Assembly: GCF_988243305.1 (NCBI RefSeq)
Contig: NZ_OZ547136.1
Reading direction: 5' to 3' (one strand)
Length of the DNA stretch: 64,000 bases
Part shown: positions 18,472 to 19,284 of the stretch, one piece after another
How the letters are laid out: each line of letters starts with the position of its first letter
Numbering within the stretch: the first letter of the stretch is position 1
Notes under the pieces: model-generated
What the model was told of the DNA's origin: nothing
The model's input: only the letters and a program-made list of their open reading frames with translations
Database searches by the model: none
Translations under genes and position numbers: made by a program

Positions 18472-19284
18472 CAGCCCCGAAAACTGCCGATTTCACGAAT
18501 TGGCCGCGCTGATTGACAGCGGCGAATGTCGGCCCTACTCCGGCGCGTTGAAGGTGGGGGGGATCTCGGTACCGCCAATATCGCAATCGTGGTGCTGGAT
18601 GAAGATAACCAGCCGGTGGCAGGGGTAATGTATCCCTCCAATGTGGTGAAAGACGGCGTGGTGGTGGATTACCTGACCGCCAGCCGGGTAGTAGCACGTC
18701 TCAAACAAATTCTTGAACAGAAACAGGGCTGCACGCTGGAGCGCGCGGCGATCGCAGTCCCACCGGGGATCTCTGAAGGCAACACAAAAGTGATCGTCAA
18801 CGTAGTGGAGTTGGCGGGTTTTATCGTGACCCAAGTACTAGATGAACCGGTAGCCGCTGCCAGCGCGCTGAATATTAAAAACGGGGCGGTGGTGGATGTC
18901 GGAGGAGGCACCACCGGCATGAGCATTTTGAAAAGCGGTAAAGTGACGTTCAGTGCCGATGAGCCCACCGGTGGAAGCCATATGAAGTTGGTGATCGCTG
19001 GCGCGCTGGGCTTGCCTTATGCCGAGGCGGAAGAAATGAAAAAAAACGGGCAGGAAGCGCAGGTCTTTACCCTGGTGCTACCGGTGGCCCAGAAAATGGC
19101 CAGCTTGGTGTCGGGATGGTTCGCTACCCAGCAGGTAAAAAATATTTATTTGGTAGGTGGCGCGAGCAGCTTCAGCCAGTTTGCCAACGTGTTCAGTAAA
19201 CAAACCGGTAAAAATGTGATTCCTTCGGCAGAGCCACTATTGGTCACACCATTAGGCATCGCCATGAATGCGGACCAGGGGTAA
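18465..19284 (+). CDS. EutJ-like actin-fold ATPase/chaperone, apparent frameshift in a G7 homopolymer
   Basis: ORF from 18526 matches EutJ (DLGTANIAIVV, DIGGGTTG); the N-terminal ~30 aa lie in another frame starting at ATG 18465; frames meet at GGGGGGG 18554-18560. Confidence 0.65.

Follow-up and report, generated by a model that had tools for sequence, protein, structure and literature searches.

A frameshift at a run of seven guanines divides the eutJ-like gene grpC of the Escherichia coli grp island

When the 5' end of a conserved gene and the rest of that gene lie in two reading frames that meet at a homopolymer, is the gene misread, broken or switched? This question is raised by grpC, a eutJ-like gene in a 64,000-nucleotide stretch of DNA (contig NZ_OZ547136.1 of NCBI RefSeq assembly GCF_988243305.1), which we refer to here as the window. 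The window carries the grp island of E. coli, a GRM3-type locus for a glycyl-radical 1,2-propanediol microcompartment, and this region is 100% identical to many E. coli chromosomes. Together the results lead us to conclude that grpC carries a frameshift fixed in its lineage. Most likely a dispensable accessory ATPase has thereby been lost or crippled, and the change has been tolerated, while annotation presents the remainder as an intact, shorter gene.

Two reading frames and a single ancestral gene

The upstream part of grpC is a remnant open reading frame (ORF) of 54 codons on the + strand (18464-18628), recognized from the ORF list and from alignment to full-length orthologues. Codons 1-32 correspond to the ancestral GrpC/EutJ N-terminus, comprising helix 5-19, a linker and the start of strand beta1. 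The ORF reads MANSPENCRFHELAALIDSGECRPYSGALKVGG, followed beyond the G run by out-of-frame residues up to the TAA at 18626-18628. The body ORF (18526-19284, + strand) has 252 codons and begins MSALLRRVEGGGDLGTANIAIVV...; it contains an Hsp70/actin-fold (ASKHA) ATPase body from the DLGT motif on, while the first 12 residues of its product are non-homologous. This is the gene called grpC by the NCBI Prokaryotic Genome Annotation Pipeline (PGAP), with protein accession WP_001332070.1. Its frame is offset by -1 from that of the upstream ORF, and the homologous segments join at a run of seven Gs (G7, 18556-18562, + strand), which is phased G_GGG_GGG in the upstream frame and is the only + strand run of at least seven Gs in the window. 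The ATG at 18526 is made from the GAA-TGT (Glu-Cys) codons of a conserved G-E-C-R motif read out of frame, and is thus a fortuitous start.

A preliminary description of this DNA had reported the two frames, offset by one and meeting at G7, and both the sequence and the ORF list bear this out. The body start at 18526 stands as given there, but the upstream ATG lies at 18464 and not 18465, and the G run at 18556-18562 and not 18554-18560. The same description stated that one extra G would give a continuous product (...ALKVGGDLGTANIAIVV...), which is correct.

The family to which this gene belongs is clear. Searches of Pfam and NCBIfam assign the body ORF to the EutJ family, and residues 11-248 match the whole of the EutJ model TIGR02529 (E = 3e-115, 383.8 bits against a cut-off of 152). 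The 252-amino-acid product also matches NF011660 (347.7 bits, cut-off 182), with model positions 1-30 left unmatched, and an intact orthologue matches the solved EutJ structure 3H1Q (E = 1e-63). In the NCBIfam search of the product no GrpC-specific hidden Markov model was matched, and the PGAP name GrpC probably stems from another kind of rule. The window gene thus resembles the EutJ family in the match of its body and in its setting within a microcompartment locus. It differs from the family in being split by a frameshift: EutJ proteins have a helix, a linker and a full beta1 strand (K-V-G-V-D-L-G-T) in one frame, whereas here the first 32 codons lie in another frame and the annotated product lacks the N-terminal helix, the GECR motif and the first half of beta1.

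A search with the reconstructed protein returned continuous orthologues of 272-274 amino acids at 100% coverage. These come from E. coli (P0001, 274 amino acids, 93% identity), Atlantibacter, Leclercia, Enterobacter, Acerihabitans, Budvicia, Vibrio, and clostridial and Lachnospiraceae genomes. At the N-terminus these proteins can be aligned with the peptide of the window's upstream frame (MADSPENRRLHELAALIDSGECRPYSGALKVG...), and the junction reads GALKVGVDLGT. Over its first 32 codons the upstream frame is identical to P0001 at 29 of 32 residues. Residues L10, L16, G27 and L29 are each at least 90% conserved among 61 homologues, and in the junction columns G32 and D34 are invariant and V33 is at least 90% conserved. 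Homology across the two frames is, on these alignments, not due to chance.

The start of the ancestral gene is preserved as well. The ATG at 18464 overlaps the 3' end of grpB, the PduL phosphotransacylase gene (17785-18471, + strand; Pfam PTAC, E = 3e-71; named by PGAP in M217 and CFT073), which reads ...CAT GGC TAA with its stop at 18469-18471 (ATGGCTAA). The same 8-nt overlap of the start with the PduL stop is found in the intact loci L004, L007, L009 and PK5074. The alignments thus show ancestral grpC to have been one ORF of 272-274 codons starting at the ATG that overlaps the grpB stop. That the G run marks a true frameshift agrees with the continuous orthologues of other species. Furthermore, the comparison with orthologous loci that the preliminary description had called for gave no case outside E. 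coli of the same split with an independent downstream start, so that the frameshift reading stands.

The DNA alignment identifies the event. The sister E. coli allele reads GTGGGGGTGGAT where the window reads GTGGGGGGGAT; aligned, these are GGT GGGGG T GG ATC in the sister allele, GGT GGGAG T GG ATC in Atlantibacter and GGT GGGGG-GG ATC in the window. The Val33 region is therefore GGGGGTGG in the sister allele and GGGAGTGG in Atlantibacter. Since the T of the Val33 codon is present in the sister allele and gone in the window, its net loss made both the G7 run and the frameshift. In terms of codons, the comparison shows a net loss of T from GTG-GGG-GTG-GAT (K-V-G-V-D, the phosphate-1 strand), in the ancestor from which the common E. 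coli grp island derives, leaving a G7 run (ancestral GGGGG-T-GG) and a -1 offset. On this evidence the G7 was absent before the mutation and was created by the net T loss, not by a change of length in an older G run, a point that the preliminary description had missed. A T-to-G substitution followed by contraction of one G may be another route to the same run. The intact sister alleles (P0001 with 274 amino acids, PK5074, Atlantibacter hermannii and Leclercia) share with the window the operon order, the 8-nt PduL overlap and 85-93% protein identity, but each has GGGGGTGG or GGGAGTGG at Val33 and a single frame, where the window lacks the T.

Distribution of the G7 allele and variation of the tract

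In order to describe the allele in the population, complete genomes were probed with an 81-nt sequence centred on the G run, and assembly blocks were counted by look-up of exact products. The locus is carried by 538 of 5,426 complete genomes. The G7 probe was found exactly in 518 of 536 complete E. coli genomes with the locus, which represent many lineages and include CFT073, S88, APEC O1 and ATCC 11775. From 18464 to 19284 CFT073 does not differ from the window, and its protein has the same accession. G6 occurred in 14 complete genomes (the one inspected, ExPEC XM, is flagged 'frameshifted' by PGAP) and G5 in one, and neither G8 nor a restored T was found in the 536 genomes.

These numbers bear first on whether the frameshift is real. 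Homopolymers are prone to error, and the G6 genomes and the single G5 genome could be cited for the view that G7 is a sequencing or assembly error, or else a private recent mutation of the strain. However, an identical G7 recurs in 518 independent complete genomes as well as about 32,000 assembly blocks. The error that the preliminary description had considered is thereby excluded, and the view as a whole, private mutation included, is practically untenable. The description had also considered a recent pseudogenising indel. An indel there is, but it is not recent: it is fixed across the island of the window type, and a T-restored allele was seen neither in the complete genomes nor as an exact product in the protein collection. 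The allele is lineage-wide and essentially fixed in the common E. coli grp island.

The assembly blocks give a finer picture of the lengths of the tract. G7, the modal and frameshifted form, accounts for 32,018 blocks with the exact 252-amino-acid product (99.4%). The out-of-frame lengths G6 and G9 together account for about 132 blocks (0.41%), G8, which is in frame and encodes V33G, for 49 (0.15%), and G5, also in frame, for 15 (0.05%). A frameshifted G10 and an in-frame G11 were each found in 1 block (0.003%), and both G4 and the in-frame T-restored product with wild-type V33 in 0 blocks. All lengths other than G7 (G5, G6, G8, G9, G10 and G11) come together to about 0.6% of some 32,200 assembly blocks. 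At first the in-frame lengths G8 and G5 appeared to outnumber G6, but this was an artefact of start choice by gene callers; inclusion of the 218-amino-acid product described below raises G6/G9 to the count of about 132, against 49 and 15.

A run of eight As in the same gene (A8, 19039-19046) served as a control. It lies beside a one-codon deletion relative to orthologues (KKN-GQEA where these have KKKPAQEA or KKDPAQEA). The A8 run was unchanged in every retrieved variant locus with a readable G tract. In complete genomes, with 81-nt probes for both, the G run varied about three times as often as the A8 run (15-18 against at most 5 of 536), and the G tract is thus a mild mutational hot spot. 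The control also disposed of the sole complete genome with G5, the 'eutJ' of MLI104K2, as a natural in-frame allele; here A8 was also reduced, to A6, which marks the G5 as a long-read artefact. With the A8 probe E. coli PK5074 (L047, NZ_CP072802.1 3709989-3715069) was 92.6% identical; it has a divergent grp-like locus with an intact 274-amino-acid eutJ, in which PGAP uses the names PduQ, phosphate propanoyltransferase and EutJ and not GrpA, GrpB and GrpC. A second complete-genome record gave a similar low-identity match to this probe.

Variation of this kind raises the possibility that G7 is a contingency switch for phase variation, where replication slippage toggles between a full-length product (G8 or G5) and the off state. 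Public assemblies do show lengths from G5 to G11 with the control run unchanged, the G tract is more variable than A8 in complete genomes, and G8 recurs. G8 and G7 loci share identical haplotypes of 5.4 kb, and since this is so for four different haplotypes (at least four in all), G8 must have arisen from G7 repeatedly, although part of the G8 instances could be assembly errors. Against a switch, G7 makes up 99.4% of blocks and the out-of-frame G6 and G9 exceed the in-frame lengths, which is the spectrum of neutral slippage or assembly noise. Losses of one G are more common than gains of one, and these in turn more common than losses of two. This spectrum and the tiny in-frame fraction match neutral slippage and not a maintained ON/OFF polymorphism. 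Moreover, no complete genome has G8, and the run is absent from orthologues, having been made by the mutation itself.

Contingency loci with poly-G/C tracts are known from Neisseria, Campylobacter and Haemophilus. The likeness to grpC is that a G run in the 5' coding region sets the frame and that natural length variants exist. Recurrent independent length changes, a trait of such loci, are seen here (some of them possibly assembly errors), but substantial ON and OFF fractions are not: only about 0.6% of blocks are off-modal, and the tract is not conserved in orthologues. In addition, the E. coli host is mismatch-repair proficient, a tract of seven Gs is shorter than is typical of contingency loci, and the product does not act at the surface or in interaction with a host. 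The slippage-prone switch of the preliminary description is thus borne out for a tract that varies and for G8 revertants that recur, and not for a maintained ON/OFF balance; as a whole it finds slight support, and we consider a contingency switch to be very improbable.

Products of the split gene and selection on grpC

What would be made from the G7 allele depends on where ribosomes start. The ATG at 18464 has a weak Shine-Dalgarno sequence, yet it overlaps the grpB stop in the conserved coupling arrangement. For the ATG at 18526 there is practically none (-2.1 kcal/mol, no better than 60% of the ATGs in the window), and this start lies inside the coupled upstream ORF. A third ATG, at 18628, overlaps the stop of the remnant ORF as TAATG (18626-18630, + strand) and is in frame with the body, where it encodes Met35 of the 252-codon ORF. 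Upstream of it is a Shine-Dalgarno-like sequence, GGCAGGGG (-6.7 kcal/mol, in the top 7.6% of window ATGs), and gene callers choose this start, with a 218-amino-acid product, in G6 and G9 assemblies. In the G7 allele the TAATG may be a candidate site of termination and reinitiation, with a predicted 218-amino-acid product that lacks the DLGT phosphate-1 motif.

We propose the following course of events. Ribosomes coupled to grpB would make the 54-codon peptide, losing the ancestral frame at the G run and stopping at the TAA at 18626-18628. The ATPase body could then be reached in three ways: by inefficient initiation at the ATG at 18526, which would give 252 amino acids without the N-terminal helix and with E-G-G-G in place of K-V-G-V; by reinitiation at the TAATG overlap, which would give 218 amino acids without the DLGT motif; and by trace -1 slippage on G_GGG_GGG. 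The net effect would most likely be that GrpC function is lost or severely reduced. In the AlphaFold model of an intact orthologue (mean pLDDT 92.6), helix 5-19 and strand beta1 (30-35) are both predicted with confidence (pLDDT 94-97). The 252-amino-acid product would therefore lack an integral helix and have the K-V-G-V half of beta1 replaced by E-G-G-G; according to the model, the lost N-terminal segment is part of the fold.

The third of these ways could be more than a trace if the heptamer were a site of programmed -1 frameshifting, or if transcriptional slippage added a G, so that a useful full-length GrpC with V33G were made. Seen from the frame coupled to grpB (codons GTG GGG GGG), the heptamer has the exact phase needed for tandem -1 slippage, the shifted product would equal the G8 protein, and a chaperone-like accessory might need trace amounts only. 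There is also a precedent in the G run of herpes simplex virus (HSV) thymidine kinase (PMC5009743). However, in the work of Sharma et al. on 64 heptamers in E. coli, GGGGGGG gave 0.030% frameshifting when unstimulated, below the background of about 0.055% without a motif; it reached 0.088% with IS911 stimulators and 1.07% with the IS3 pseudoknot, and GGN codons were poor shifters in general (PMC4066793). A stimulatory element was not found here. Downstream, the fold of the 105 nt of 18556-18660 is not significantly more stable than that of shuffled sequence (z = -1.25), with the G run itself taking part in the predicted pairing, and inspection of the sequence by eye alone showed no suitably placed Shine-Dalgarno stimulator upstream. 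No stimulator would be expected, because the arrangement is an accident of coding sequence. Nor is the two-frame layout conserved; all orthologues outside the E. coli island of the window type are single-frame, which means that no recoding signal has co-evolved.

The HSV case, described as a 'savior indel' (PMC5009743), resembles grpC in that an indel lies in a G7 run near the 5' part of the gene and that low-level frameshifting can give a trace of full-length protein. The difference is that leaky expression of thymidine kinase was demonstrated and selected by drug, whereas the GrpC case is known from sequence and GGGGGGG is at background in E. coli. Recoding that yields a useful GrpC is thus, in our judgement, extremely improbable. 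We regard as very improbable, too, a broader proposal in which the G7 allele is 'leaky by design', with trace V33G GrpC from slippage and rare G8 and G5 revertants acting as a low-rate switch, or in which the split yields two working parts, the 54-amino-acid helix peptide and a separately initiated ATPase body.

The alternative that deserves most weight takes the PGAP annotation at face value: the 252-amino-acid protein from the ATG at 18526 would be a functional, re-started GrpC with its N-terminus merely replaced. The body ORF is intact in the same 518 complete genomes and roughly 32,000 blocks, every ATPase motif from DLGT on is kept, and the TIGR02529 match covers the full model. However, the start of such a protein lacks a Shine-Dalgarno sequence, lies inside the ORF coupled to grpB, and exists only through conserved Glu-Cys codons read out of frame. 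The confidently modelled N-terminal helix and hydrophobic residues of beta1, including V33, would be gone. The G8 revertants can be read in two ways. If nothing is missing from the re-started protein, their failure to spread is as expected; in either case, the fact that G8 keeps arising and never spreads means that E. coli shows no noticeable positive selection for full-length GrpC, or at least for the V33G form of it.

Selection was analysed with per-gene Nei-Gojobori ratios of nonsynonymous to synonymous substitution (dN/dS), with branch counts polarised by two outgroups, and with odd residues at conserved columns of 107 homologues. The counts of nonsynonymous to synonymous change in grpC are 13:10 on the window branch, where a one-codon deletion occurred too, and 5:14 on the sister branch (Fisher p = 0.065). 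At the position of K175 each of the 107 other homologues has T or S, and F10 and Q88 are likewise unique at conserved columns. Both the raised ratio and K175 argue against a functional re-started protein.

Several of our results weigh on the other side, against the loss or crippling of GrpC that we favour. Ratios are also raised in the neighbouring grp genes (50:66 against 65:131), and grpC is not significantly different from these (Fisher p = 0.26). The six odd residues of grpC at conserved columns equal the family median, so that by this measure it deviates no more than other members do. Furthermore, the 252-codon ORF is open in about 99% of some 32,000 assemblies; there has been little time for decay, though, because strains are at least 99% identical at the locus. 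The data are therefore compatible with relaxed constraint on grpC but do not prove it, and as the trend is neither significant nor specific to grpC, we do not claim it. Weighing both sides, we hold a functional re-started GrpC to be unlikely, and a crippled or lost accessory ATPase to be the better account.

Across the island the ratio is above that of the sister allele for all grp genes from grpA to grpG (16527-22024), for instance 7:7 against 1:9 in grpB and 11:13 against 9:26 in grpA. This suggests that the whole island, and not only grpC, is under relaxed or short-timescale selection. Rare variants also occur on the G7 background: an in-frame deletion of 11 amino acids (P0010), a lost stop codon giving 269 amino acids (P0128), and a deletion of 46 amino acids that removes the DVGGGTT phosphate-2 motif, found on 5 contigs (P0014).

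The grp island and the meaning of the split gene

The gene lies between the PduL and flavoprotein genes of the GRM3-type locus, and PGAP labels on identical chromosomes (M217 and CFT073) run from grpA through grpS. Axen et al. describe the ancillary set of GRM3 loci as acetate kinase, a peptidase and a flavoprotein, along with a homolog of EutJ, SAM synthetase, a two-component system and DUF336 (PMC4207490). The composition of the window locus agrees with this description, and grpC has the location within a microcompartment operon that is typical of the family.

Additional features of the island were seen. Upstream of grpA (about 9700-16500) the M217 annotation lists pieces of the type VI secretion proteins VasL and ImpA, a ShlB/FhaC fragment, an integrase core fragment and a frameshifted DNA-binding protein. 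From these fragments and pseudogenes it follows that the grp operon sits in a decayed genomic island. Between grpO and the two-component genes grpP/grpQ an adjacent pair of ORFs (31039-32127), labelled 'maturase' and 'reverse transcriptase domain-containing protein' in CFT073, looks like the broken ORF of a group II intron that was inserted into the island. The RefSeq record of CFT073 flags the shell gene grpH as 'frameshifted' (L011 31812-32095, approximately 22309-22590 of the window), whereas the gene is intact in M217 and in loci of the window type; either the strains differ or the old sequence of CFT073 contains an error. The start of grpD (19268-19993) is ambiguous. PGAP uses the ATG at 19268, which gives 241 amino acids, overlaps grpC and has no Shine-Dalgarno sequence (-2.4 kcal/mol); an ATG at 19289 has a good one (-6.7 kcal/mol), gives 234 amino acids and is called in many assemblies and orthologue loci.

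Loss of GrpC would be tolerated because a EutJ-type protein has an accessory role and is needed neither for microcompartment formation nor for growth. Deletion of eutJ in Salmonella had no noticeable effect on assembly of the Eut compartment or on growth, and tagged EutJ was cytosolic (PMC12487888). The function of EutJ is given as unknown (PMC4207490). According to a statement in PMC11724981 that cites Lundin 2020, CFT073 is supported by its grp genes in producing ATP and in growing anaerobically on 1,2-propanediol.

Our results have direct consequences for annotation. The reference "GrpC" (WP_001332070.1, 252 amino acids) is a remnant of a frameshifted eutJ-like gene, and this remnant form is carried by CFT073, the strain on which grp genetics and the naming of the genes rest. 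Work that expresses, deletes or models GrpC, or that draws conclusions on the role of EutJ-type proteins in glycyl-radical microcompartments, should take into account that the E. coli version is without the ancestral start, the N-terminal helix and half of beta1. Intact alleles exist in E. coli of the P0001 type, in PK5074 and in Atlantibacter. In biological terms the frameshift is fixed but ordinary, the homopolymer noise is normal, and there is no good evidence for programmed recoding or phase variation. Taken together with the report that the grp pathway works, here without full-length GrpC, the finding is a further indication that EutJ-type proteins are accessories that can be dispensed with.

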